Shown piece by piece: positions 942-47,000 of a stretch of 49,343 bases of DNA; the first letter of the stretch is position 1, and every line of letters starts with the position of its first letter. A model generated the notes under the pieces. That model was not told where the DNA came from. It searched no databases and was given only the letters and a program-made list of their open reading frames with translations. The stretch is from Leucoraja erinacea (lineage: Eukaryota): NCBI RefSeq assembly GCF_028641065.1, contig NC_073401.1, positions 1,874,658 through 1,924,000 on the forward strand, given 5' to 3'. The position numbers and the translations under genes were made by a program.

Positions 942-1280
942 GGAGGAACCTCGATAAAGGGACTTAGACCTGAAAAATTCGGCAAATTGTTGGGAGCGAT
1001 GGGTGATAAATCCTTTGGTCATGATGGACTTCATCCTAGGATCTCAAAATAAGTGGCGAGTGAGATATTTGACATTGACTCATTGACTTAATCTTTTCAA
1101 AATGAACCAGATTTGTGCAAGTTCCTTTAGATCAGAAAAAAAGCAAATGTAATTCCATTTATACGAAATGTGATAGAAACACAAAGCTGAAAACTTAGGG
1201 CCAAGTAGCTTCACATGTTGTGAGAAAATATGAGAAGATATCATTAAAAACTTTGTAGCAAGCCACTTAGAACACATTTA

Positions 1281-4100
1281 GTTTGCGAGTAGCACATTCT
1301 GCTACTGATAGATCAAGACGTTTGGTGGTGGACACACTGCTAGACCAATGTGACATTCTGTGCCTGCAAGAAACCTGGATGGCGAAACAAGATGTGGATA
1401 AGTTGAACACTCTACACATGAACTTCCGTGGGGCTGGAGAGTCCACTACCGACCTCAGTACGAGGCTGGTTCGGGGTAGGATAGCTGGTGGTGTAGCTAT
1501 ACTGTGGAACATCAAATATGACTCATTGGTGAAGGTGGTGCATCTAAATGTTGACTGGGCCATAGGGCTGGAGTGTAATTATAATGGAAATAAATTTACT
1601 GTCTTAAATGTTTATACACCGTATGAATCATATGAGCATGAGGACGAATTTCTGAACAGGTTAGCTTTTATTCAGTCCTTCATAGAGGACAACAGCTCAT
1701 CCTGTGTCTACGTCATGGGTGATTTTAATGCTGACATGGCAGATAGCAAATCTTTATTTGCAGCACACCTGCAGCAGTTTTGGAATGAGTCTAAACTAAT
1801 TCTATCGAGTAAAGCTCTGTTGCCTGACACAAGTTTTACCTATGTTAGTGAGGCGTGGCACACAACATCTTGGCTAGACCATATTGTGACCACAGCTGAT
1901 GCTCATGCCTCACTGGAAAATGTGGAGATTTGTTATGAACTTGCCACCTCTGATCACATACCTATTGCTGCACGGTTAAATGTTGAGAATGTCCAGTAAT
2001 AATAATGCTGCTCCCTCAAGTAAACTGGACTGGTCAAAACTGAGCAGAGAGGTTATGGCTGGATACTCACTGCGAACGGACAATTTTTTAATTATATTGA
2101 ATTGCCTCAAGAGGCCCTAATGTGCTCAAATATGAATTGTAAGGACATGCAACATGCTGAAAAACTCTGTGCCATGTATGATGTTATTGTGAAATGTCTC
2201 AATGCTTCCAGTGATCCCTTTTGTAAAAGCAGATGTAAGGTACCCAACATCAGACCTGGGTGGAATGAGTTTGTGGCTGAGCAGTACGCTGAGGCAAGAG
2301 AGGCCTTTAGACTCTGGTCAGAGGCAGGTAGGCCTAGACAGGGGGCATTGCTAGATATGAAAAAACGCACAAATGCTAGAGTTGAGTATGCACTTCGTTT
2401 TATTAAGAAAAATGAAAACACAATGAGAGCAGACTCGCTTGCCAGAAAGCTACGGAACAACAACCTTACTAACTTCTAGAAAGAGGTCAAAGTAATAAAT
2501 AACAATAAAACACCCCTACCGTCTGACATTGAAGGTGTTAGTAGCCCAGAAAAAATAGCTGAGAGTTGGCGTGAGCACTACTGTAACCTTTTTAACTGTG
2601 GTAAAAGTAACCCAGTTAGAATCAATCATGAACATATTGATCTCTCTGTAGATATGGTAGTTAGGGCAGCAGATGTCTATGATGCCATTAACATGTTGGA
2701 TAACACCAAAGCCTGTGGAATGGACTGCATTACTGCAGAACATCTAAAATATGCCAGCTATAAGCTCTGCCCCTTGCTTTCCATGTGCTTTAATGGTTGT
2801 TTGGTTCATGGTGTCCTGCCAAATACTATTATGTCTGTAATGTTAGTGCCTGTGCTTAAAGACAAGGCTGGTAAGCTCAACAGTATTGACAATTATCGAC
2901 CTATTGCATTAGCCAGTATCTTGTCTAAAGTACTGGAGAGAATACTGTTGACAAAGCTAGAAATGTATGTCCTTACTACTGACAATCAGTTTGGGTTCAA
3001 AAGAAAGCATGGAACTGACCTGTGTATCTATGCTCTTAAAGAGATTGTGTTCAGGTACACAAGCCTGAATTCATCTGTATTCCTATGTTTTATTGATGCG
3101 TCCAAGGCATTTGATAGAATTAATCATGAACAATTGTTTGTAAAATTGCTAGATAGAGGTGCCCCTAAATTTTTAATGAGAATTTTAGTGTTTTAGTATG
3201 CCCATCAAACGTTTCAGGTTAAATGGGACAATGTTGTATCTGCTCCATTCTGTGTTAGTAACGGAGTGCGGCAAGGAGGAATTTTGCCTCCTATTTTATT
3301 TAATGTTTATATGGACGAATTGTCAAATCAGTTAAATAGGTTAAAAACCGGCTGTCTTGTGGGCAACACTATTGTTAATCATCTGATGTATGCAGACAAC
3401 CTGGTCCTGCTCTGTCCATATAGTGCTGGGCTGCAGCAGATGCTGAAGGTGTGCTCTCAGTATGGCCTTGATTATGACATAAAGTATAACGCTAAGAAAA
3501 GCCGCATAATGGTAGTTAGAAGCGCTGAGGACAGGGAATCAACTTTTCCGACCTTTTATTTGTCAGACAGTCCTCTAACTGTGTGTGAGGAAATTAAATA
3601 CCTAGGTCATGTCATATCCGATGACTGGACGGATGACAAAGACCTCTACCGACAGCGCTGTAAAATTTATTTTCAAGCTAACATACTTATAAGGAAGTTT
3701 TCTATGTGCTCTGACTGTGAAGTGTTCCTTGTTCAGAACCTATATCACACCGTTATATACTGCTCAATTGTGGTCTAACTATAAGAAAAAGAGTATGCAG
3801 AGGCTTAAGGTAGCATACAATAGTTTGTGTCCACTAGAGTGCCAACCTGTGAGGCACTCTTAAGACAGCTGATGTTTAGTTTTATGTGTCGCCTGGACAA
3901 GTCAGAGAACCACATAATTGAAGCCCTAGTCAGCCCTCTGAAAAGCTGCTATAGATTCACTTCTAGGCTAAGATGGCATTGGTGCAATAGCTTGTATATC
4001 TTATAGGCTAATATGCAATTTTTAATATATTTTTTGTATCTCCTTATACTGTATGATGTGTCATATGGACCTGTGTCTGAAATAAAGCTTTATTATTATT
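1281..4100 (+). mobile_element. 5'-truncated LINE, probably RTE-X clade; disrupted ORF2 (APE endonuclease + reverse transcriptase)
   Basis: APE motifs DILCLQETW, MGDFNA, WLDH, SDH; RT motifs NYRPIAL, QFGF, FIDASKAFD, GVRQGGIL, YADN (mutated YADD). Premature TAG stops at 2477 and 3194 plus frameshifts; ends AATAAA then (TTA)n; ATTTA at both junctions (1276-1280, 4098-4102). Confidence 0.88.
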
Positions 4101-10295: not shown

Positions 10296-10506
10296 TTAGG
10301 GGACAGACAGGAGATTCAGTGGCAGCAAACGAGACTCCAGGGTGATGTGCTGCCTCCATAGTGCCAGGGTCCAGGATATCTCTGAGTGGTTGCAAAACAT
10401 TCTCAAGCGGGGGAGGGTGAGCAACCGGAAGTTGTTGTGCACCTTGGCACAAACGACATTGGTGGAAAAGTAACTGGATATAGGGAGTGAGGCAAGAGAC
10501 TAAAAG

Positions 10507-11424
10507 ACCGGAAGGCGGCGCGACTTTCGTCAGCAGCGGCCTCCGCAGCCCGTCCGCATTTTTATTATTTTTTGTCTATGTTTATATGTAGTTTTTGTTA
10601 TTTTTTGTTGGGGTGTGTGTGTGGGGGGGTGGGAGGGAGGGGGCAACTTTTAAATCTCTCCCTGCACTGGAGACCCGACCTTTTCTTGTCGGGTCTCCGT
10701 TGTCGTTGGGGCTGCAATGAGGAGCGGCCTCCAACAGAAGAAGCCGGGGACTCTGGTGCCGACTCACCTCACCGTCGCGGAGCTGGCCGAGTCCAGAGCG
10801 GGTGGAGCGGTGGTGGAGCGCTGCTGCTGCTGCTGCTGTTGCTGCTGCTGATTCGGAGGCTGCAACTGCGGGTCTGCGGATGGCGGCACCGGGAGCCCGC
10901 GGGTCCCTGGAGGGAGACCGCTTTTCAGGGCTCCTGCAACGGCGACTTCTCCCGCCCGAGTTGCGGGGTCGAAGAGCTCCTGGAGCGGGGCCTAACATCA
11001 CTGCCCCGCGCGGCTTGGAATGGCCGCGGGACTCTGCGAGCGCCCGCCGGGGGCTCCAACATCAAGACCCGGTGTGCGACCTCGCACCACCCGGCGTGGC
11101 TTTAATGGCCGTGGGACAATCGCCATCGCCAGCCGGGGGCTTTGACTTTGACTCTGTCATCGGGGGGGGGGGGGGGCCGCGGGACAATCGCCATCGCCAG
11201 CCGGGGGCTTTGACTTTGACTCTGACATCGGGGGGGTGAGAGGGCAGTGGAGAGATAAGTTTTTTTTTGGCCTTCCATCACAACAATGTGATGGATGTTT
11301 ATGTAAAATGTAAATTATGTTGTGTCTGGGGTCTATTTGTTTGTAATGTATGGCTGCAGAAACGGCATTTCGTTTGGACCTCAAGGGGTCCAAATGACAA
11401 TAAAATTGACTCTCTTGACTCTTG
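10507..11424 (+). mobile_element. GC-rich non-autonomous retroposon, copy A (full length, Rex1-like tail)
   Basis: AAAAG TSD (10502-10506, 11425-11429); 3' stem-loop ATTTCGTTTGGACC..GGTCCAAATGACAATAAA then a (CTTGACT)-type tail; no tRNA boxes seen; no credible ORF. Confidence 0.75.
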
Positions 11425-11837
11425 AAAAGCAGGTCCCTGAGCGTTTCTGTGGCTAACTCCTGGTGCCATGTGCTGGTGAGGTTAGAAATGTAAAGATAGG
11501 ATAGATGAATGCACAGCTCAGGATTGGTTCAGGGGCCAGAGAATCAGATTTGTAGACCATTATGATCTCTTCAGTGAACAAGCATTTTGTGTATATTGAT
11601 CACAACTCTATAAATTTTAAGATTGTTGTGAACTAAACCCAAAGACGACCTCCACAACCGTCTGTAGCAATGCATTCCACAGATTCAACACACTCTGGCT
11701 CAAGAAATTCCTCATCTCTTTTCTAAAGGCACAATCTTGTATTCAGAGGTTGTTCTCTCTGGACATAGACTGGTGGAAACATCCTCTCCACATCCACTCT
11801 TTCCAGTCCTTTCTTGATCGTGCTTGGTGTCTGAGGA

Positions 11838-18035: not shown

Positions 18036-18380
18036 CGCAGGAGGTTCGACTAGCCTCGACCCGTGGTCCGATCACCCCCCGTGATGCGGGAGCTTGATCG
18101 CCCCGACATAGAGGGCTCGACCGCCTGCTGTGGGAGCCAAAATCGCCCCGACAACGGAAGGTCAAGTGTCCCGACCGCGGGAGAACAAAGAAGGGAAGAA
18201 GATTGAGATTTTTTTGCCTTCCATCACAGTGAGGAATGTGGGGGAGTTGCTGTGGTGGATGTTCATGTTAAAATGTATTTGGGTGACTTGTTGCTCTTTA
18301 TTGGCATGACTGTATGGGAAATCAAATTCCTCGTACGTTACAAAACATACTTGGCTAAATAAGTATGATTATGAATATGA
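18036..18380 (+). mobile_element. GC-rich non-autonomous retroposon, copy C (5'-truncated)
   Basis: Core GCCTTCCATCACAG...CTGTGGTGGATGTT; tail CAAATTCCTCGTA..ACATACTTGGCTAAATAA then (ATGATT)n. Confidence 0.7.
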
Positions 18381-18748
18381 TCGGCGGTCACTCAAAATGA
18401 GTATGACTGCTCTCCATAGGGTCGTCTACTTGTGGGTCTGTAGATGTCTGTAGAGGCTGATCCGTGATCCACGCACCTTGGAGCAACGTGGGCAGTGGAG
18501 ACTGGCAGTGGTTGGTAATCATCAAGCCCCCTTCTCTCTCCGTTCGACTGTTGAACTATCAAATGGGCATAGTTCCATTTCATGACATCCAGCTCCTTCC
18601 TGCACGGATTTCCTCCAGGAGCGCCTGTCCAGTGCAATTTGCTCCCAGTTGCTCGATGTGATGTGGAAATTCTACAAACTGTTCTTGATGTTGAAGCGTT
18701 TCTCTGGCCCGCCGGCGGCTCGCCGACCTTCCTTCAGCTGAGAACGAT
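18381..18748 (-). mobile_element. RTE (BovB-like) LINE 3' fragment
   Basis: SQLKEGRRAAGGPEKRF..NWEQIALDRRSWRKSVQEGA..HCPRCSKVRGSRISLYRHLQTHK*; inserted in the (ATGATT)n tail of copy C. Confidence 0.8.
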
Positions 18749-19870
18749 TATGATTATGATTATGGCAAGGCATGGTCAGTAAGTTGGCAGATGACACTAA
18801 AGTGGGCGGTACCATTACTCGCGAAAATTATGTATCTAAACTTACAGCAGGTTCTTGAACAGTTGGGCAAGTGGGCTGCGGAATGGCTAATACAATTCAC
18901 TGTAGATAAGTGTGTGGTGTGGGGTCAAACTAGTGTTGGACTTCACAGTGAATGGCATGGCCCTGGGGAATATTGCAGAGCAGGGGGATCCAGGAGCACA
19001 AGTACATCGTTCTTTGAAAGTGGCGTCACAGGTAGATAGGGTGGTCAAGAAGGCTTTTGGTACGTTGGCAGGGTGTTGAGTAGAGAAGTCAGGACGTCAT
19101 GTAACAGATATACAAGGCGTTGGTGAGGCATCATTTGGAGTATTGTACTACCCTTCTATGGGAAGGATGTTGGTGAGAAGATTTACAAAGATGTTGCCAG
19201 GACTTGAGGATCTGAGCTACAGGGCGTGGTTGGGCTGGCTGGGATATTATTCCTTGCAGTACAAAAGGATGAAGGATCTTTAGCTTAGTTTACAGATACA
19301 GCATGGGAACAGGACCTTTGGCCTACCGAGTCGATGCTGACCATTGATCACCCACTAACACTAGTTCCAGGTGTTTCTCAACCACTCCCTACACACTAAA
19401 GGGTCTAAATATCTCCATCCAACCCAGTCCTCAAGCATCGCATGACCTCACTTTCCCCCAGATATTAAGGCATAATAATAAAAATCTGGAAATCAGTAGA
19501 TGATTTCTTCCTTGCCTCTTGGCAATTTATTTTTCTCATAAGGTATTACAAAGTTGAAAACCGGTTATGGTCTATAAATGAAACATTTGACCTAACAAGT
19601 CAATGCCTGCATTTATGCTCCACACCATCTTCGAACCACTCCAATCAATTTATCTTGTGATTGCTTTTTATTTTGAATACATATTTAACTTCTCCTTGAG
19701 GGCAGCTGTGATCTTCACATCATCTGCTCCTGGTGTCATTAAATTGCATTTTCTGATGTAAGCTTTTCAGAGCTTCATTTCATAAGTGTGAGACAAATGG
19801 ATCAAGACTCTGCTGTGCGATGAACGGAATGAATGTGTTAGCATGTTCACTGTAAATAACTTTATCTGCT

Positions 19871-20428: not shown

Positions 20429-21852
20429 AATTATAGACCTGTTAGTTTGATGTCAGTGGTGGGCAATTTAATGGAAAGGATACTTAGAGATAATATATAT
20501 AAGCATCTGGATAAACAGGGTCTGATTAGGAACAGTCAACATGGATTTGTACCTGGAAGGTCATGTTTGACTAATCTTCTTGAATTTTTTGAAGAGGTTA
20601 CTCGGGAAATTGATGAGGGTAAAGCAGTGGATGTTGTATATATGGACTTTAGTAAGGCCTTTGACAAGGTTCCTCACGGAAGGTTGGTTAAGAAGGTTCA
20701 ATGTTGGGGTAATAATGGGTGTGGAGTGGAGTAGCAAGATGGATTCAAACAGTGGCTGAATGGGAGATGCCCAGAGAGTAATGGTGGATGGTTGTTTGTC
20801 AGGTTGGAGGCCATGACGAGTGGGGTGCCACAGGGATCTGTGTTGGGTCCACTGTTGTTTTGTCATGTACATCAATGATCTGGATGATGGTGTGGTAAAT
20901 TGTTGCGCTTCGTTAGTAAGTATGCAGATGATACAAGATAGGTGGGGTTTGTGGATAATGAAGTAGAGTTTTCAAAGTCTACAGAGAGATTTATGCCAGT
21001 TGGAAGAGTGGGCCTGAAAGATGGCAGATGGAGTTTAATGCTGATAAGTGTGAGGTGCTACATCTTGGCAGGACAAATCAAAATAGGACGTACATGGTAA
21101 ATGGTAGGGAATTGAAGAATGCAGGTGAACAGAGGGATCTGGGAATAACTGTGCACAGTTCCCTGAAAGTGGAATCTCATGTAGATAGGGTAGTAAAGAA
21201 AACTTTTGGTGTGCTGGCCTTTATAAATCAGAGCATTGAGTATAGAAGTTGGGATGTAATGTTAAAATTGTACAAGCATTGGTGAGGCTAATTTTGGAGT
21301 ATGGTGTACAATTTTGGTCGCCTAATTATAGGAAGGGTTTCAACAAAATAGAGAGAGTACAGAGGAGATTTACTAGAATGTTGCCTGGGTTTCAGCAACT
21401 AAGTTACAGAGAAAGGTTGAACAAGTTAGGGCTTTATTCTTTGGAGCGCGGAAGGTTAAGGGGGGACTTGATAGAAGTCTTTAAAATTATGAGAGGGATA
21501 GACAGAGTTGACGTGGATAAGCTTTTCCCACTGAGAGTAGGGAAGATTCAAACAAGGGGACATGACTTGAGAATTAAGGGACAGAAGTTTAGGGGTAACA
21601 TGAGGGGGAACTTCTTTCCTCAGAGAGTGGTGGCTGTGTGGAATGAGCTTCCAGTGAAGGTGGTGGAGGCAGGTTCGTTTTTATCATTTAAAAATAAATT
21701 GGATAGTTATATGGACGAGAAAGGAATGGAGGGTTATGGTCTGAGCGCAGGTAGATGGGACTGGGGGAGAATATGTGTTCGGCACGGACTAGAAGGGTCG
21801 AGATGGCCTGTTTCCGTGCTGTAATTGTTATATGGTTATATGGTTATATGGT
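20429..21852 (+). mobile_element. Young 5'-truncated CR1 LINE (RT and C-terminus, frameshifted)
   Basis: NYRPVSLMSVVG, QHGFVPGRSCLTNLLEFFEEVT, VYMDFSKAFDKVPH, SGVPQGSVLGP, SKYADDT, LEYGVQFWSP; tail (GGTTATAT)n. Confidence 0.95.
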
Positions 21853-31333: not shown

Positions 31334-31542
31334 AATCTCCACCATCTGATATTGAGTCAGCAAAGGAAAACACAACATTGGAAGCTCTCAGCTGGCCAGG
31401 AAGAAGATGGGTGGCGCCAGGTGATGGGTTAACCAGTCCTGACCTTGGTGCTCACAGTTTAGCTTCAGCCCAAGAGCAGTGGTCTTGCCCACCTCATATA
31501 GTGGGTGAAAGGGCCGGCTCTCCCTCTCAGCCCCCAACTGAC

Positions 31543-31942
31543 CTGATATCTCCACGAAGCTGTCTTTGGTTTTGATGGTGAGCTCCTCTGGGGCGAAGCT
31601 CTGCACGTTGACACACATCTTCCAGGGTTCGCCGGGGCTGAGGCTGGGTGGGCTCCTGGTCTCAGGGTAGCCCGTGTAGCGGGCCGTGTAGTGGGGCGGC
31701 GACGGGCTGCCGGCGGCCGCGGCATCGCGGGCTGCTGCCCCGTTGAAGGACGACCTCAGCGGGCCGGGCCAGGTGGATGTGAGCCTGGGGCGAGCCCAGT
31801 CGGGCCAGTCGGCCGTGAAGTGGTCGGGGAAGGGCGACATGCCGAAGTCCTCCTCCAGGAAGCGAGGATCTCGGAAGGGGTCCCTGGTGCTCCTGTGCCT
31901 GCCGGGGATCTGGCAGGAGAAGGGGACCTGACCTTCAGCCAT
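31543..31942 (-). CDS. HSPB8: HSPB8 (HSP22) coding exon 1
   Basis: Translates [11 protein letters not shown]...RDPFRD...[22 protein letters not shown]...[32 protein letters not shown], matching the HSPB8 N-terminus and start of the alpha-crystallin domain. Kozak GCCATGG; donor G|GTCAGT; 400 nt, phase 1. Confidence 0.97.
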
Positions 31943-32310
31943 GGCTACGCACTCTCTACCCCTCTCAGCTCACCGACCCGCTGCTTTATACTGGCGTTGG
32001 GGGAGGCGAGGACGCCGGCAGTTGTCATCAGTAAAATCTGATCTATGAGCAATGCGCAGGAATGCGGGCCGGCCCGCCCGCGGGAGCGCTATCCTCTTAC
32101 GTGTGCTGACCAAGTTTAGCCATCCCTCGCTTCGCCCTGCCTCCCCGCCGGCTATTTCAAGCAGCGCCGCTCATCCTTGTTTACCAGCCGCCGGCTCCAG
32201 TGGGCGACGATGTGTCCGCTTCATGGACCGCTGCCGGCGCTCGTGTGCTGACAAAAGTACTCACAAACCCGGCACTCACTGCGAAAAGTACCAAACACTT
32301 CAACTTGGGT
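31943..32310 (-). promoter_or_regulatory. HSPB8 proximal promoter / CpG-rich region with candidate TATA box
   Basis: CpG-dense sequence continuous with exon 1; TATAAA on the minus strand at 31985-31990, about 45 nt upstream of the ATG. Confidence 0.55.
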
Positions 32311-32312
32311 AA

Positions 32313-32622
32313 AGGGCCTGTCCCACTTACGCGGCTTTTACAAGCGACTGCCGGCACCCGTGATAGGTCGCCGAAATTTTCAACATGGTAAAAAATCAGC
32401 GGCGACCAGAAAGACGCCACGACTCTTTGGAGACCTCTCCACGACCGTAGGAGAACTCTCACCACCATGCAGCCTGTATGGTCGCAAGAGGTCTCCTATG
32501 GTTGTGAGAGGTCTCCAGAGCCTTTCTGGTCGCTGCTGAATTTTCCACATGTTGAAAATTCCGGCGACCTATCACGGGTGCCGGCAGTCGCCTGTAAAGG
32601 TCGCGATAGTGGGACGGGCCCT
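32313..32622. mobile_element. PIF/Harbinger-type MITE with long terminal inverted repeats, just upstream of HSPB8
   Basis: AGGGCCTGTCCCACT...AGTGGGACGGGCCCT; about 100 bp of inverted similarity; TAA/TTA flanks. Confidence 0.85.
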
Positions 32623-33029
32623 TTACACGACCGTCTGGCCACATTGTCCCCGTCTCTACCAAAGGGAACGAACTGCAGATGCTGGTTTACACTGAAGATA
32701 GACACAACATGCTGGAGTAACTCAGCGGGACAGGCAACATCTCTGGAGAGAAGGAATGGGCGATATTTTGGGTCGAGACCTCTCTTCAGACTATATTATA
32801 CTCTAGTATAGATACTATCATATTATACTTGAGTTTAATCAGGCCAAGTACAAGTGAAGTGCAAAGAGAAAAATACCGAATATTATATAATCTGCGGAGA
32901 TACTCCAGCATTTTGTGTCTATCTTCAGTGTGAACCATCAGCTGCAGTTCATTCCTATACATGAGTAGTATGGGTGCAGTGTGCAGTGTGACAGTGTGCA
33001 GTGTGACAGAAATCACGAGGCAGACGCAA

Positions 33030-35889: not shown

Positions 35890-36545
35890 TAGTTCTCCGA
35901 CTAGTTTCACTGTCCTCCTGATTAATTTAACTGATTGTATGCCTCGTTGTCATCTTCCCCTCAGTTTACAATGAACCATTTCCATTTCCTTGTGTCTGTT
36001 TTGATCTGTCATTTTCACACCTTACTGTTCCATGTCTCTTGTCTCCCTCTCCCCTCTCACCCATTCCCTTTCTCCAGAGATGCTGCCTGTCCCGCGGAGT
36101 TACAAGATAGACACAAAATGCTGGAGTAATTCAGCGGGACAGGCAGCATCTCTGGCGAGAAGGAATGGGTAATGTTTCGGGTCGAGACCTTTCTTCAGAC
36201 TTCACGTTCTCTTGGGATGACAAGGCAGCAGGCAGGTCGTGCAACGTTGAGAATAATGAGGGCAGCGACTGCAGGCCAGATCCAGCCCAGTGTGTGCTCT
36301 TAGGTGAATAAGATGGGAGAGTCATCCCTCATTCCAATAGTGTAGGTCCTTCAACAGCATTACGTTCCAGGGTGTCTCTGACTAACAAAATGTAGAACAA
36401 AATGTAGATAAACCCTCTGAAGAAGGGTTTCGACCTGAAACGTTGCCTATTTCCTTCGCTCCATAGATGCTGCCTCACCCGCTGAGTTTCTCCAGCACTT
36501 TTGTCTACCTTTGATTTTCCAGCATCTGCAGTTCCTTCTTAATCA
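35890..36545. mobile_element. Cluster of PLE terminal repeats (35890-36200 inverted pair; 36415-36543 second subfamily)
   Basis: Core variants at ~36172-36198 (minus) and CTGAAGAAGGGTTTCGACCTGAAACGTT at 36417; CAAAATGTAGAT duplicated around the second. Confidence 0.75.
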
Positions 36546-38024
36546 AAATGTAGATCAAGATGAGTGAGGATGTGAAACCTGTGATCAGAGAGCAGTCAGT
36601 TTAAATTTACAATGTTGTAACATGCAGGCAAAATGTAAACGAGAGTATCACCTTGTTGCATAGCAGTACCTCTTGAGTATATGGAAATTGTTTGAAAAAC
36701 ATCTAACGGCAGGAAATGTTGAATTTCTTATAATTTACATGTTACAGGACTTAAATAAAGTAGGATAAAGTCAATATTAATTATATCTGTAAACATCAGT
36801 CTCTATTTTTCTCTTGTTAGACTAATGGGTTTGGTTTATTTAAACTGCACCTTTCCTGTCCATTGAGCTGTAATCTTAGAATGATGCAGACATTTTGTTC
36901 AGAATGACTCAGCTCGTATACACTTTCTCTTTTCTAACATCACTGCAGCTTAATTCAGATCACAGCCTGGGATCCCATATCCATATTTTTATAGTTCTAT
37001 TTAACAATGTCACTTTGGCAAGATAATCAAGCAGAAATGATTTGACAAATTGTGTTTATGGCCACTTCATTTCAATCTAGGGGCCCTGCTGTTTAACAAC
37101 ACCACAGAAGAAGAACAAAACAGCAGGGAAGCACTTTACATTTCCAGATTCAAATCATTTGCTTGACTGGGAATCAAGTCAAACGCGGCACTACTGATGC
37201 TTCCATTCCCCAACTAACTTCTGAGGAACAACTGACCTTGGAAAACAGTTGATTCCACTGTGTAAATATCACACTGTAAGTACAAATTGAAAATTTGCTG
37301 TTGGAGGGGAGGTCAAGGGCACAAAACATTTAAGTGCCAACTAGCTGCCCTGGGGAAAGTCATGTCATGGGTTTCTGTCCAGGATTGTGGACCAGAAACA
37401 TTTTCACAGCCTAAAGGATGTTCTACACAAAAATGTCCTTGAGCTGCATATTTTATTTCAGGCTGTAAGTACAGCTAACTCATGCAATGATAGCAGTGCA
37501 TCACTTAGCATATCCAGCAAGGTCTTCTGGCCAGTTTAATGACTCAACTATTACATTGTGTGAACCTCCGTGCAGAACTGGTGTCATTTGATCAGAGAAA
37601 TGACTCTTTTACGTTGTAACATCACACCAAGTGGTTGCGGTCTTTTTACTGGGTACCCCCTCTGCCTTCTCTGATAAGGACAGTATGTTGTGAAGAGGAA
37701 TCCAAGGGTGGGGAAAATAAACGATCAAACTCTCACTCAACAGTAATAGCTATGAATGAAAAATATCTTACAAATTATTTTTAATCAACTTTTAGAGTCA
37801 AAGAGTCTTACAGAGTGGAAACAAGCCCTTTGGTCCAACTTGCTCACACCGGCCAACATGTCCCATCTACACTAGTCCCACCTGCCCGCATTTGGCCCAT
37901 ATCCTTTTATTGATGATCTCAATGGCACAGCAGATAAGACCCTGGCAGAAGTTAGTATTTTAAAGAATTTCACTATTCAGGAAAGAACTTCTCAGGAAGC
38001 GGAAAGTTCAAAATGTATTACCTT

Positions 38025-40300
38025 TTGAATGAATGAATGAATGTATGAATGAATGATTGAATGGATGAATACGTTTGTTGTCATTGCACAACACTGTGCA
38101 ACGAAATTCCATTACACCTCCTCCGGTTAAAAAATACAAACACGATAACCATTGACACATATGTACACTTATTAGTAAAATAATAAATAAGTATTTAAAA
38201 AGAATTTAAAAGAATTTGGTGGCATTTCTTGGAATTACATTTTGCTTCCCTAGTGTTCTCTGTTGGAATTTAGCTCTTTTATCGCACATGGGTAGAAACT
38301 ATTTTTTAGTCTACTGGTACGAGCCTTCAGAGACCTGAATCACCAGAGACCTGAATCACCAGAGACCTGAATCGCTTCCCAGAGGGTAGCAGAGTGAAAA
38401 GGTGGTTGGCAGGGTGGGATGTGTCCTGCTTGATATTTGTGGTCCAGCGCAAGCATCGGGCCCTGTATATATCATCCAAGGAGGGCAGTTGAGCGTTTGT
38501 AATGCTCTGTGCAGTTTTTATAATTCCCTGCAGCGCCCTCCTCTCAGCCACAGTACAGGTAGCAAACCACACCAGGATTCCATAGGAGAGGATACTTTCC
38601 ACGGCGCATCGGTAGAAGGACAGCAGCAGCGGCTGTGAGACGTTTGCTCTCCGCAGAGACCTCAGGAAATACAGCCGCTGCTGTGACTTCTTCACGAGAG
38701 TGACGGTGTTCATTTGCCATTTGAGGTCCTGGGAGATATTTATTCCCAGGAACTTAAAGCCAGTGACTCTCTCCACCATGTCTCCTTTGATGTATAAGGG
38801 AGCAGGTTCCTCTCTCCTCTTCCTCCTGAAGTCAACGACCAGTTCTTTTGTCTTTGATGGGTTGAGTACCAGGTTGTTTTTGGTACACCAGACAGTCAGT
38901 TTTTGGACTTCATCTCTGTAGGCAGACTCGTCGTTGTTGTTTATCAGTCCCACCACAGTCGTGTCGTCCACAAACTTGATGATCCTGTTTGTACTGTGTG
39001 TTGGTGTGCAGTCATAAGTGTATATTGTATACAAGATGGTACTCAGCACACAACCTTGTGGCGCTCCTGTGCTGAGCGTCAGGACTGGGGAGTAATTGGA
39101 CCCCATCCTGACAGTCTGTGGGCGGTCTGTTAAGAAGTCCTTCATCCATCTGCATGTGTTTGCATTAACACCCTGATCAGACAGTTTGTCCACCATTCTG
39201 CTGGGGATGATGGTATTAAATGCAGAACTAAAATCTACAAATAACATCCTCACATATGAGCCAGGGCGCTCCAGATGTGCCAGTGCAGAATGTAGAGCTA
39301 TGTTGATGGCATCTTCCGTTGACCTATTAGCTCTATATGCAAACTGATGCTGATCCAGGGTGGATGGGAGTGAGGACTTAATGTGGGCCAGGACCAGCCG
39401 TTCAAAACATTTCATCACCGTTGAAGTGAGAGCAACAAGTCTATAGTCATTCAAGCTGGTAATAGATGTTTTTATGGGTACAGGCACGACAGTAGCAGTT
39501 TTGAAACATTTAGGGACAGTGCACGTTGACAGAGAGAGGTTAAAGATGTCGCTAAAAACCTCCGCTAACTGGTCTGCACAGTCCCGCAATACTCTCCCTG
39601 GGATGCCATCTGGGCCAGCAGCCTTCCTGGGGTTGACCCTGCGGAGTGCTCTTCTGACGTCCTCCGTACTCACAGTGAGTGGCACAGTGAGTGCGAGGTC
39701 GTCAGTGCTGGGTGCGGCTGCAGGTGCAGGCTCCGCCTCATTCAGCTCAAAACGGGCGAAAAAGTGGTTGAGCTCCTCAGCTAGCGAGTTGTTACTGCTG
39801 TTGATGATCGGCCCCCCCTTGCCCTTGTAGTTTGTGAGTTGCTGAATGCCCTGCCAGACACGCCGAGGGTCCCTCTCGTTAAAATACCCCTCTAACCTTC
39901 TTCCATAGACTGTCTTTGCCTCTTTGATGGCTCTCTTTAGTTTAGATCTGACAGTGCTGTACAATTCATCACTGCCAGATCTAAAGGCTGAGTTGCGTTC
40001 CCTCAGCAGTTTCCTGACATCCCTGGTCATCCATGGTTTGTTGTTTGGATAGCACCTGACCTCCCTGTCGACAGTGACGTTGTTGATACAGTTCTGTATA
40101 TAGAACATGACTGTGGATGTGTATTCTTGTATGTCCTGGTTTGCAAACAGGTCCCACTGGGTGCGCTCAAAACAGTCCTGAAGTTGGGCGGCAGCGCCCT
40201 CGGGCCAAGTCTTTATGTTTCTCACACTGGGCTTGGTTCTCATAATGAGAGGTCTGTATGCCGGGGTGAGAAAGAGTGATAGATGGTCTAGGTATAATTT
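38025..40300 (-). mobile_element. Young 5'-truncated Rex1/Babar LINE with a 665-aa open RT ORF
   Basis: DHLSLFLTPAY (end of APE), KAAGPDGIPG, LNDYRLVAL, HQFAYRANRSTEDAI, FVDFSSAFNTI, GAPQGCVLS, KFVDDTT (mutated FADD); natural stop 38250-38252; 3' stem-loop and (ATTC)n tail. Confidence 0.93.
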
Positions 40301-41009
40301 CTGATGATCTAGGTATAATTTCAAACAAGTATCATTTTGGGATACAGTCTATGAAGATTTCAAGTTGTGACTTTAACACACTATCATGTTAACAAAAATA
40401 ACTGAATCTGTTGTTGACAAATGTTTTACTCCACTCCTCCACATTCTCTCATGCTCTATCTGGGCTGTCCAGATGAACTGATGGAAATGGATTTTTCTGA
40501 TAAGTCAGCCTCTCCCTTATCACTCTAAGCTGTGACAACAAGGATAATGGAATATGAGCTAAGTGAATGTCAATCTTTTTTTTCACGCTGCAGCTCCTAA
40601 GCTACCATGCCCAGCTACATCAAGTTTCTCGCAATCAAATTATATCCTTTATTAGTTAGGGTCTGTTACTCAAGTTCGCCTACTGCAGTTGGTCAGCAGA
40701 TTTTATTGAAGTCTAGAAATAGCTGTCTAAAACAGTGGTGAGAATGTGTTCTACCAAGGACAGCCTGTTTGTAAAGAACGGAGCAATGGATTTATCATCA
40801 TTAACATCATCATGGTTTATAATTTATAAAATGCAAACCTTTTTTTTCTTCTATGAGAGATTGGGCAACAAATCACAGAGGAAATTTTATCAGAGCAATG
40901 AGGCTTATCACAAGCGACACAGGTATGTGTGTCCTCAAGCCCATATGTGGCGGGAACAATTTTTATCTCTTTCCTCGACGTAGAAGTGACTTTTTCCGTA
41001 TCGTATCTC

Positions 41010-41357
41010 CGTCCATGCTGCAGCCTAACATCATGGAGCTGACGGTCCCATGGCTGGGGATCAACTTCGGGAGCTCCAACCACGGGAGTTTCAATCGACC
41101 CAATGCGGGAGCTTCGATCGCCGACTGCAGAAGCTTCGATCGCCCCAACTGCGGATGGTTTGACTGAGAGAGAAAAGGAGGGAAGAAGATAATACGTTAT
41201 TGCCTTCCATCACAGTGCGCTGTGGTGGATGTTTATGTTAATTTTTTTGTAGTTGTGTGTTTTGTTGGCTTTTTGGTATGACTGTATGGCGAGTCAAGTT
41301 ATCTGTATGTTCTTACATACTTGGCTAATAAATTCTTCGCATCTTGTATCTTGATTC
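41010..41357 (+). mobile_element. GC-rich non-autonomous retroposon, copy D (5'-truncated)
   Basis: Core hairpin 41206-41229; tail ACATACTTGGCTAATAAA; shares gcctaacatca and gctccaac motifs with copy A. Confidence 0.7.
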
Positions 41358-42496: not shown

Positions 42497-42551
<55 letters not shown>

Positions 42552-43449
42552 AATAATATGTATTTATATAGTACATTTATAGTCAATTTTCATTGAACCC
42601 AAAGTGCTTTACATAATTTAAAAATCAGTTCCATACAAAGCATAAAGATGGGTTAACAAAATAATAAAATGCATAAACAGGACACAACATGTAACATAAA
42701 CATCCACCACAGCATTCATCACTGTGGTGGAAGGCACAAAAAATTTTGGCCGTCCTCCTCCATTTCCCCCCCCGTGGACAAGACCAGAGTCCAGAGTCCA
42801 GTCCAGGATCGGTCTTTCCTCACCGGAGACCGCGGCTTCAAGATTGTGTAGGCCGCAGGCCGGCGGTTGAGATTTAAAGTCCCCGCTGCAGCCAGAAGCA
42901 CCGTAGACTGCAGGGCCGGCGGTCGAAGCTCCCCTCCAGGGGTGATGGTAAGTCCATGCCGGGCCCGCGGTAGAAGTTATCCGCGGGCCGGCAATCGCGG
43001 CTTCTTCTTCCCCCGGGTCCCCCACGAGGGATCCCGGGCTGTAGGCGCCGCAGCAGCTGGAACTCTGCAGACCGCTTCAGGCTGCGACTTCAGGCTGCCG
43101 GCTGCCCCGGACCAGTGAAACGGAGCACTCCCCTCCGGCGAGCCCCAGCGAGGGCTCACCCGCTCCACGCCGAGTCCATGCTGCGCCTGCCACTGAAGCC
43201 CTGGGCACGTCTCCGGGAAAGACCTCACCGATCCTTGATGGTAGGCCACGGGGGAGGCGACCTGGAAAAAGTCGCCTCTCCATGGAGGAGGCGACCAAAG
43301 CGGTTTCCCCCTTACACCACCCACACCACCCCCCACACAAAACACAAAAAACCCCACTAAATACACACTTTAAAACATACTAAAAATAAAAAATAAAATT
43401 GAAAGGCTGACGCGCTGCTGCCATGGCTGCCGCCAAAACAGCGCCCCCT
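42497..43449 (-). mobile_element. GC-rich non-autonomous retroposon, copy B (full length, L2-like tail)
   Basis: Head architecture as in copy A; core hairpin 42703-42731; tail TGTAAAGCACTTTGGG...TATATAAATAAA then (TAT)n. Confidence 0.72.
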
Positions 43450-44099: not shown

Positions 44100-47000
44100 T
44101 TGGATGTTCGGAAGCATGGGGAATAGAATAGATCGAGATATGACAGGAGAGGAAAGGATCCCATTAGAACAAATGCGTAATGAGTTTCCTCACAAGGAAG
44201 AGAAATTAAGAAATTTATCAGGAGTGTTAAATAAGAAATTAGGAAACAAGCTTTGGCCATTGGAACAGTATAAGGGATAAAATACATTGAGAGGATTATT
44301 TGGCAACATAGTAATAACGAAAGTGCAAAAGAATTAATAGGGTTATAGAGAAACAATTATGAGGAACGGAAGGCGAATAAAGAGGTTAAGAGGGATAGTT
44401 GGGAAAAAGCGATTGGTAAACTTGGAATAGAACTGAAAGAAGGTGAAGTAGATTGACCTCCAGGCAGTAGGAAGGACAGAGTGGAGATGAAGGTAAACAC
44501 ACAGGACAAGGGGAAGGCAGATCTCCTGGAAGGAAACTAGTCTCTGTAAATTTAAAGATAAGGAATCCGATGGTTTATGCTGACTTCGAGGGGGAAGGAG
44601 ATGAATATTTAGAAGAGTGGACAGATGTTAACGTAAGTGGAAGTTCACAACTCCCACCATGTTCCTCTTGCGTTTCCCAGGCTTCAATTGTATGACTTGT
44701 TACCGTAAAACAAAAATCAGGTCCTCAGAACCTATAACAACTCCTGCAGTTTCTGTACCTGCACAGACTCTACCAACAGCAGATACTGGGGTACCAGATT
44801 CTTCGACCCTATGCACTCCATCATTGATAGATCGTCCAGTGGCTTATGGCACCCAGTGTAGAACGAAGAGGTTAGCTCAGGTGTTTAAAGAAATGGAAGG
44901 TATGATCGATATATTGCAGCAGCCAGAGTATTTATGAGCCACAACCAAGGCAGATCATACGAGTAGTAAGAAAGAGGAACGATTTATTGGACAGTATCGG
45001 GAAACCCCTAGCGAATGGGAAGATTCATCTGAGGGTGAGTCAATGATTGAAGATACCGAGATAGATTTTGATGTAACCAAAAGTTTACAAATTAAACAGA
45101 TATCCCAAAGGCAGTTCCCAGTAAGGGAAGGGTTGGGCACAGTGGATTTGACCAGTGCAGTAAGTACGAAAAATCCCAGTGCCACAGACGTCCATACTCC
45201 GTGGTAGCTCCATGAAATAATGGAAGTACTAAATAGAAACCCCGATAGGAAGCAGCACTATGCTGCTTTTATAGATTATTTAAGAAACACGATGTGTGTA
45301 TACCATGCAGATTCACGGGATTTGTGGGAGACCATACAACAGATAATTACTTCAGCTGAAAAGACCAAATTTCTAGTAACCCTAGGACACCCAACTTTTA
45401 AAGCTTTGGCAAACATAGTAATGGATGACAGTGCAAGCGAAGAGACTGTTTTAACAGTCCCTTGCAAAAACATTTCAGAAACCAAGCGATTTAAAAGAGT
45501 TCTGGAAATAAAACCAGAAAAGGATGAAGGAGCAGACAAATTTCTAGACCGTTCTTCAAAATTATATATGGACCAATCTGGAGACTTAAGACTATCAGAA
45601 TGGAGCAAGTTCCCCTCAATATTGTGCTATCCTATTGTATTGCCTCCCCACTAAAGTAGCGGACTTAATTAAGACTGATAACAGGGACTGGTCTGAGAAC
45701 TGAGCCAGTCAGATGGCCAGAGCTGTGAGGCACTATTGGAAGGAGGGTAGGAACCAGGAAAATGATCCTGTAACTGGAAGAGAAAGTGAACTTATAGCCA
45801 AGAAAGAATTGCCAAGATCTTACTCTGAACCATGGATCCCCAGAGTACCAGCAAATTATAGATTGGGAGAAAATAGGGTTCCAGATTACTCAGATTATTA
45901 TCACAACCACACTCCCAATTTAGAATCCCTTCCAATGGAACCAAGGGGTAGAATGAAGCCAACCTAATCAATGCTACACTTGTGGGGGGATGGGACATTG
46001 GAGTCGATCGTGTCCTGTGAGGGAGTATCGAGAAGGAAGGGGATAAAGAAGAGGGCTACGAACCAGTGGACCCCGATAAATTACCGGGACACTTGGGACC
46101 CCAAGAGTAAAGGACTAGGACACTGGCAAGGAGATCAGGTGCCAGGGACATTTTGGCAATCGAACCAATCCATTACCCTTAACCTACCAGTTAATACCAT
46201 CTATGAAATCTGAAGGCTTCATATAGGCCCAAAACAGCAATAAAACCCCGAAAGAACATCACCCCCTTCCAAAACCTAGGAGGAGACACAAAGAATCTAC
46301 TTATCGAGAACCCTCAGTGAAGAAAGGACTACGGAAAGGGAAAAATAGTAGCTGGTGTGAGAAAGAATGGCACTAGAAGAGAGAAGAAGCGACTATATTG
46401 TGCAGGGGGTACGGGAGTGGGGAAAGGAGCTATTATACGAACTTGTTATTGAGTTTGTGCCTGCAGGACAGTATAATCAACAATGTGCTATCTGGGGAGT
46501 GAGTTGAGAACAGGCAGAAGACATCAAAGGTAATGTAGCTCCCCAGAAACAGGAATCAACAAGCAGGATTAAATGATACTGTCCTGTCCCTTTAAGACAA
46601 ATCTGGGAAGACCAACTGATAGGGAAAGCTGCTCCTCAGTATCCCTACTCCCTTGAAACTGGCATCAGAGAAGAAGATGAAAACCTACCCCATTGCCCAA
46701 CTTTAACATCATCTAGCTTTTGACGCCAGTGAATGAAAGGAAAGTAACACCATCTAATCTTTGCTAAAGAAACAACACCGACAACCTATGATGACTGAAT
46801 TTGATTTGAAAAATACATTCCTTTGTGGTTAGGGGCAAAATACTTGCTTTGCGCCATAGTTTAGTTATAAATAAATTGATTTAAAGAGGGCTTATGGGAT
46901 ACAGTCTTAAAAATTGTTAGAGAATTGACTGTTGACTTGGCATTCTTCTCTTGTCGCACCCATAGGAGGATAGTCGGAGATGGGACGGGACTATTTAGTT

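Follow-up and report, generated by a model that had tools for sequence, protein, structure and literature searches.

A conserved free-loop hairpin in the core of an ORF-less retroposon family of Leucoraja erinacea

Why conserved SINE-like cores persist while heads and tails are swapped around them is an open question, and the body is called the most enigmatic part of a SINE in the available text of PMC5786205. The locus analysed here, a 49,343-nt stretch of Leucoraja erinacea DNA (NC_073401.1, positions 1,874,658 to 1,924,000; hereafter the window), carries four retroposon copies, A to D, that hold one and the same hairpin (H2) at their core (Table 1). Such a core of 45 nt, a plain free-loop hairpin found with several tails in a transcribed family of high copy number, lends itself to tests far more easily than the CORE or Deu domains. 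The original prediction took the hairpin to be covarying and its pairing to be selected at the RNA level for a role in mobilisation. What has been kept in H2, and what might it do? The sequences, coordinates and strands of the four hairpins, the distances between their arms as drawn (4, 9, 20 and 4 nt in A to D) and the fifth pair, U-A in A, C-G in B and U-G in C and D, were read again and agree with that prediction. The arms also stand as drawn, but as loop lengths the distances do not hold for B and C, whose stems are longer and whose true loops are shorter; that of C is prolonged to 13 bp through U-G, G-U and A-U pairs (18230-32 with 18249-47).

Table 1. Positions, in window numbering, of the elements, their hairpins and the LINE discussed in the text
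Feature	Position	Strand	Description
Element A	10506-11426	+	~920 nt, apparently full length, ORF-less retroposon; GC 0.59, CpG o/e 0.84
5' head of A	10506-10720	+	GC-rich start followed by tracts rich in U, in GU and in G and by hairpin H1; homology with head of B
Head hairpin H1 of A	10669-10698	+	11/11 pairs, U-rich loop, z -3.65
Tandem duplication in body of A	11107-11236	+	68 nt
Core hairpin H2 of A	11274-11295	+	9 bp, 4-nt loop, fifth pair U-A
3' tail of A	11296-11426	+	terminal stem-loop (11370-11397), AATAAA, short repeat end
Element C	18040-18381	+	5'-truncated; of one lineage with D; in CR1-like RT fragment, with possible duplication of 3 nt
Core hairpin H2 of C	18220-18259	+	10 bp, extendable to 13; 20 nt between arms; fifth pair U-G
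Distal piece of 6-nt tail repeat of C	18746-18764	+	split from C by 364-nt unrelated insert (18382-18745)
LINE, 5'-truncated	38020-40348	-	673-aa RT frame (RVT_1 + ALKBH8_N); 3' UTR with terminal stem-loop, 4-nt microsatellite; without H2
Element D	40945-41352	+	~410 nt; starts within head region; shorter body; ends approximate
Head hairpin H1 of D, decayed	40980-41010	+	8/11 pairs, no stable fold, z +0.30
Repeat in body of D	41083-41154	+	22-nt repeat
Core hairpin H2 of D	41206-41229	+	10 bp, 4-nt loop, fifth pair U-G
Element B	42497-43449	-	~950 nt, apparently full length; ends in 3-nt microsatellite (42497-42558); tail differs from those of A, C and D
Core hairpin H2 of B	42703-42731	-	10 bp, extendable to 12; 9 nt between arms; fifth pair C-G
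Head hairpin H1 of B	43251-43281	-	10/11 pairs, two both-sided changes relative to A, z -2.60

By sequence comparison, A to D are judged to be copies of one diverged retroposon family and not four unrelated hosts of the core. The heads of A and B align over their first 215 nt with a score of 164 (0 of 500 local shuffles), the homology among the heads of A, B and D holds for each of the three pairs (0 of 1000 shuffles each), and when these heads were compared with 3156 tiles of the window the best non-self matches were the other two heads. The heads of A and B presumably resemble LINE 5' UTRs (Rex1/Babar). A 15-nt body motif is common to B, C and D, and a 10-nt motif to A, B and D; otherwise the bodies, save that of C with that of D, lie beyond local alignment, and local scores are confined to head and core. 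All four elements have a CpG observed/expected ratio of 0.82-0.92, against 0.44 for the window, which also carries RT-bearing LINE fragments and many SINE-like repeats and whose repeats look like those of a skate or ray. The retroposon context of the original prediction was borne out by the microsatellite 3' ends, the LINE-matching tail of A, the 5' truncation of C and D and the way in which C cleanly interrupts a CR1-like element, whose flanks around C are contiguous in another copy (20750-21000). The family has the marks of non-LTR retroposons: a simple repeat at the 3' end, truncated 5' ends and discrete insertions whose target duplications are short or absent. The sequence into which A inserted we take to be a CR1-like ORF1 fragment, and the 364-nt piece inside the tail repeat of C, which has no second copy in the window, an antisense RTE fragment. 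A protein-coding role of the elements was rejected: four frames of A and B are without a Pfam match, and protein searches with element frames were empty or gave one irrelevant match, that of the HMMER search with the frame of B being a single unrelated repeat protein (3.6e-05). The frames across H2 differ from copy to copy. As whole RNAs, A and B fold better than their shuffles (z -7.1 and -4.5, 0 of 20), although these values come from global shuffles and are inflated by uneven base composition.

H2 has a purine-rich tract and a U-run on its 5' side and a U/GU-rich linker on its 3' side. In A, C and D it is located 96-103 nt upstream of an AATAAA-like signal; in B its distance to the tail end is about 120-135 nt (121-134 nt to the words that correspond to the signal). 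There is no fifth copy in the window, where a profile of the four cores gave four strong matches. A 9-bp stem by itself is common, since the plus strand of the window holds 44 stems of at least 9 bp with at most one wobble; the non-random aspect of H2 is its recurrence at a homologous place. In predicted folds of the whole sense RNA the pairs of H2 have probabilities of 0.67-1.0 in A, B and D, and in C the inner eight of the ten pairs reach 1.0 while the outer two stand at 0.31 and 0.72. The G-U wobble had been said to work on the sense strand only; this is so for C and D, whose fifth pair has an antisense probability of 0. The H2 sequences of A and B are perfect palindromes and fold on both strands. 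The sense strand is not favoured by local folding in the four copies (sense z -2.5, -4.0, -0.75 and -2.8; antisense z -3.3, -4.7, -0.9 and -2.5).

The claim that H2 covaries was not supported by analysis. Relative to the commonest pair, none of its 11 pairs carries a both-sided change among the four copies and ten are invariant; the covariation score of 0.091 was equalled or beaten in 382 of 500 shuffles, and the covariation term of RNAalifold is +0.12, all of this on four sequences, a sample with no statistical power. The sole variable pair shows single transitions away from U-G. Because both transitions at U-G preserve pairing, the chance that two changes there are both compatible with pairing is about one in three (0.33, given the spectrum of changes in the reads described below), and as statistics the covariation argument from four copies carries no weight. 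The unpaired flanks of H2 are about as invariant as its stem (4/4 and 9/11 columns versus 16/18), and of about 33 core columns 29 show little or no variation. Hence, the four copies share a conserved block of sequence, about 45 nt long, that holds a stem of 9-13 bp and a loop free to vary.

A block of this kind might be kept for its primary sequence, as a DNA site, a single-strand protein site or a patch for tail recombination, with template switching tidying the palindrome and slippage of the reverse transcriptase varying the loop. The equal invariance of flanks and arms and the lack of both-sided change in H2 are what this explanation would expect. Moreover, A and B have each been turned into a perfect palindrome by one transition, as would result from quasi-palindrome correction, an established mechanism, and some contig joints remove or repeat pieces of the hairpin. 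However, a spacer that varies from 4 to 20 nt is a poor fit to a dimeric DNA site, and the U-G pair, which reads as a C-A mismatch on the opposite strand, survives uncorrected in C, in D and in most C-like reads. We consider conservation as primary sequence unlikely, though it deserves to be kept in mind.

A family-wide view was obtained from four public runs (of 24 listed) of three organisms, aligned to C at 80% likeness and biased in this way to C-like copies; the alignments took in 7881 and 7750 contigs and, from the other two runs, 3492 and 2176 reads. Depth peaks at 18204-18275 in all four runs. The core depth is 89-fold that of the 5' body and 2.3-fold that of the tail in the contigs of run X1, and 26-fold and 3.5-fold, respectively, in the reads of run X24. 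The family is very abundant, contig depth being no copy number. From the core, 93% and 92% of the RNA reads continue into unlike sequence, and the loose read ends give several distinct consensuses, purine-rich upstream and U-rich downstream. Reads diverging outside the core and several flank consensuses imply that many subfamilies share the core. Among the 40 substitutions listed of 474, none falls in the arms of H2 (18220-29 and 18250-59), and the 12 indels listed of 89 spare the arms, three of them falling in the H2 loop and the others outside the hairpin. At pair five, most C-like reads appear to carry U-G. The majority letters at 18248 and 18249 are C (76-90%) and A (64-83%), by which the G-U and U-G pairs of C become G-C and U-A and the stem is longer. 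Since positions are unlinked in these read tables, they show conservation and not covariation. That a large family keeps this stem in its core, with the loop free, is supported by the reads of three organisms.

The family is transcribed. In the poly(A) library X21 the ratio between strands is 7.4:1 at the core, 3.8:1 at the tail and 23:1 at the 5' body, and the usual library convention, applied without a control gene, suggests that the majority strand is sense; in X24 the ratio is 1:1. RNA-level selection on H2 would be plausible. The U-G pair of C and D, apparently shared by most C-like reads, makes it likelier, and so does the one-strand bias of this one poly(A) library. Words found upstream of H2 in the reads (compare 18203-18209) could pair with the 5 nt 3' of H2 (18261-18265); this putative lower stem would carry a one-sided U-rich bulge, and chance pairing is easy in purine- and U-rich flanks. 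Position 18264, 3' of the H2 of C, is polymorphic in the reads (C/T, 55-66% T).

The head hairpin H1, whose pairs were tabulated by script, has two adjacent C-G pairs of one copy swapped to G-C in the other between A and B, and is arguably a better covariation candidate than H2, though from two sequences. These both-sided swaps indicate that the family conserves structure over sequence somewhere. The 3' arm of H1 has an overlapping upstream copy in B, which permits an alternative hairpin (43295-43271).

At the other end of the elements three tail types are found, one in A, one in C and D together and one in B. The tail of A matches the 3' UTR of the LINE of Table 1 (38020-38260, minus strand; score 54, 0 of 300 shuffles), and in the terminal stem the inner sequence differs between the two while both pair. 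This LINE, which we take to be of Rex1/Babar type, is a candidate for the kind of partner that A uses. The tails of B, C and D match neither of the two LINE ends tested in the window, a LINE-shared 3' tail being found for one of the four copies; the tail of C and D is presumably of Rex1 type and that of B of L2 type. Tandem duplications of 16 and 21 nt are located at the two ends of the 673-aa frame (38328-38373 and 40282-40322). Another, fragmented LINE (1271-4100, plus strand) has endonuclease and RT domains, a 3' stem-loop of its own and a short repeat end, and its tail matches none of A to D.

The tails bear on the explanation that H2 is a functionless passenger, inherited from an ancestral LINE 3' UTR or founder, that stands out between low-complexity flanks which drift faster. 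Homology does extend outside the core, to the heads of A, B and D and to the body motif of B, C and D; the flanks are purine- and U-rich tracts, and CpG-poor arms would be slow to decay. Yet the bodies and tails of A, B and C/D are unalignable while most core columns are invariant or close to it, and the window LINE that shares the tail of A is without H2. A passenger origin of the conservation is in our judgement improbable.

Taking into account that (i) the arms and flanks are kept while the loop is let go, (ii) the tail of A matches the 3' UTR of a LINE that is without H2, and (iii) the core is the depth peak, with diverging flanks and with arms that are clean among the listed changes, we propose that H2 is a general docking stem that does not depend on the partner. 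H2 would be a conserved cis-acting RNA stem with an RNA-level function in mobilisation, a reading to which we give roughly even chances with a slight lean in its favour; the identity of its partner is less certain. In the model, the element RNA would consist, in this order, of the 5' head with H1, the variable GC-rich body, the purine-rich tract, the U-run, H2, the U/GU-rich linker and the LINE-type tail. It would probably be made by Pol II, as the presence of U-runs and the absence of a Pol III head suggest. The terminal tail, about 100 nt past H2, would select the LINE reverse transcriptase, and tails would be exchanged between lineages while H2 stays. With its arms and unpaired flanks read and its loop ignored, H2 may help to load or hold the RNA on the LINE ORF2 protein, or on a host factor by which the RNA is delivered to that protein, ahead of target-primed reverse transcription. 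The binding partner and any role of H2 in mobilisation we infer from these sequence features. A precedent is found in the stringent LINEs of zebrafish, whose 3' stem, according to the accessible part of PMC4176376, is bound generally by a conserved region of ORF2 independently of the loop, whereas the loop is bound specifically. The proposal of a docking stem is weakened by the lack of significant covariation in H2 and the equal conservation of its unpaired flanks, by antisense local z values that are as good as the sense ones and by the decay of H1 in D. The apparent dispensability of SINE bodies for retrotransposition, stated in the available text of PMC5499810, also counts against it.

Membership of the family in SINE classes 1, 2 or 3 fails at the head, where no tRNA, 5S or 7SL sequence and no Pol III promoter were found. 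ARAGORN returned no tRNA genes, the first 200 nt of A and B hold no pair of A and B boxes, and Rfam (E<=1), the check that the original prediction had named, gave five weak matches in the window, none within A to D. SINEs with conserved domains (CORE, V, Deu/Nin, Ceph, Meta and UCON3), as described in the available parts of PMC5786205, PMC7245038 and PMC5499810, are like A to D in their short central block, differing flanks, exchanged LINE tails, lack of coding capacity and microsatellite 3' ends. In contrast to them, A to D have no small-RNA head, have internal U-runs and are 920-950 nt at full length, and their block is a free-loop hairpin beside the tail and not a domain behind the head. 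Four core words of 9-11 nt are absent from the supplement files consulted (one of PMC5786205 and two of PMC7245038), and the UCON3 alignment in the supplement of PMC7245038, as far as it was available, is unlike the core by eye.

The bipartite non-autonomous LINEs (RIME, NARTc, Bov-A, RTESINE and Vingi derivatives) resemble A in being ORF-less, in having a LINE 3' end and in being probably transcribed by Pol II (PMC5786205, accessible text), and a LINE-derived 3' part together with absent ORFs was found in A. The tail of A, however, comes from a LINE with RVT_1 and ALKBH8_N domains, while the sources given for bipartite elements in the same text are RTE, Ingi, Vingi and R2 only, and a long GC-rich body and H2 lie between head and tail. 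Bird SINEs, as cited in the parts of PMC7245038 and PMC5786205 at hand, share with A to D a GC-rich 5' part not derived from small RNA and joined to a LINE tail, but they are uniform and mobilised by RTE, and those passages report no hairpin core across different tails. The tail stem-loops of stringent LINEs and SINEs (ZfL2-1, ZfL2-2 and UnaL2; PMC4176376 and PMC3747384, in part) lie near the RNA 3' end, like the terminal stem that A has besides H2; they adjoin the terminal repeats and their loop gives specificity, whereas H2, with its free loop, lies some 100 nt upstream and is common to unlike tails. As a terminal LINE stem-loop H2 was rejected, being 96-134 nt upstream of the tail end, with a loop of 4-20 nt, and recurring with different tails.

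Another relative to be weighed is the ENE. In the available text of PMC7583470 and PMC12501189, the ENEs of PAN, MALAT1 and plant transposons resemble H2 as stem-loops that have U-rich sides and are located towards the 3' end of an intronless mobile RNA, and the latter source reports that an ENE raises the mobility of the plant retrotransposon Evade. H2 and its U-tracts would then clamp poly(A) in a triple helix and protect the intronless RNA, an explanation that gains from the U-run 5' of the stem in A, B and C, the U-rich 3' side in all four copies and the presence of reads in poly(A) libraries. ENEs, however, have a two-sided, closed U-rich internal loop, and none of the four predicted folds has such a loop closed by a stable G-C stem; the 3' U-run beside the stem is just 3 nt, D is without an intact 5' U-run and Rfam gave no match. 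An ENE function of H2 is therefore very improbable.

Splicing would explain the 5' arm in another manner, as a 3' splice acceptor (U-tract and CAG) masked by the hairpin, or as the trace of an element spread by exon capture. A pyrimidine tract followed by CAG does stand at the end of the 5' arm in B, C and D. But A is without the AG, RNA depth has no step at 18229/18230, and among the joints, loose ends and common starts or ends listed none falls there, which makes a splicing origin hardly credible. A crude descriptor of the HDV-like ribozyme of LINE 5' ends, a nested double pseudoknot, gave no partial match in the four sense sequences, and Rfam gave no match. H2 was dismissed by eye as an IRE or SECIS, having no loop or motifs that match theirs, and as a Helitron end-hairpin, being followed by 100 nt of conserved tail and a microsatellite.

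For cartilaginous fish, the SINEs HE1, SacSINE1 and CmiSINE as well as Rex1 are described, with nothing like A to D in the available parts of the sources (PMC7245038, PMC5499810, PMC3747384, PMC2746220, PMC6274825 and PMC13343379). No description of the A to D family was found in the literature, Repbase, Dfam and most subscription papers lying outside the search, and a literature search for four core words of 15-18 nt gave no paper in which they are printed. The H2 pattern had no match in viral contigs. Its 110 matches in metagenome contigs were all inspected and rejected as bacterial-looking, none having blastn similarity to the window, and three matches in prokaryote genomes were all put down to chance. 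A family this abundant likely sits unnamed in automatic repeat libraries.

The widest reading is that of an undescribed, very abundant superfamily of non-autonomous Pol II retroposons of cartilaginous fish, free of small-RNA parts and with two hairpins conserved in structure, H1 and H2, in which H2 would serve as a loop-independent adaptor through which one RNA scaffold is mobilised by LINEs of different clades (Rex1- and L2-type) by way of tail exchange. We offer it tentatively and regard it as doubtful. If true, it would give a conserved retroposon core a structural, testable function, and would add ORF-less derivatives of CR1-group LINEs to the four clades of PMC5786205. Rays are reported to be among the vertebrates with the highest Rex1 coverage (PMC13343379, accessible text); repeat annotation would be affected if part of this coverage corresponds to non-autonomous elements with Rex1 tails. 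If the rival explanations hold, A to D would be an ordinary repeat, probably already present without a name in automatic repeat libraries.

The window has other features of its own. At 31388-31969 (minus strand) lies the first exon of a gene for a small heat-shock protein, with HSPB8 as its closest match. Just upstream of it, two inverted arms of 105 nt, 89% complementary and 108 nt apart (32309-32626), are probably a small non-autonomous DNA transposon. At 36066-36164, common SINE/LINE tail repeats placed head to head give a long hairpin with a weak microRNA-precursor score, which is an artefact of the inverted repeat. Upstream of the insertion site of B, broken frames of 100-148 aa (44632-45654, plus strand), one of which was tested and gave no Pfam match, are possibly a decayed transposon gene.
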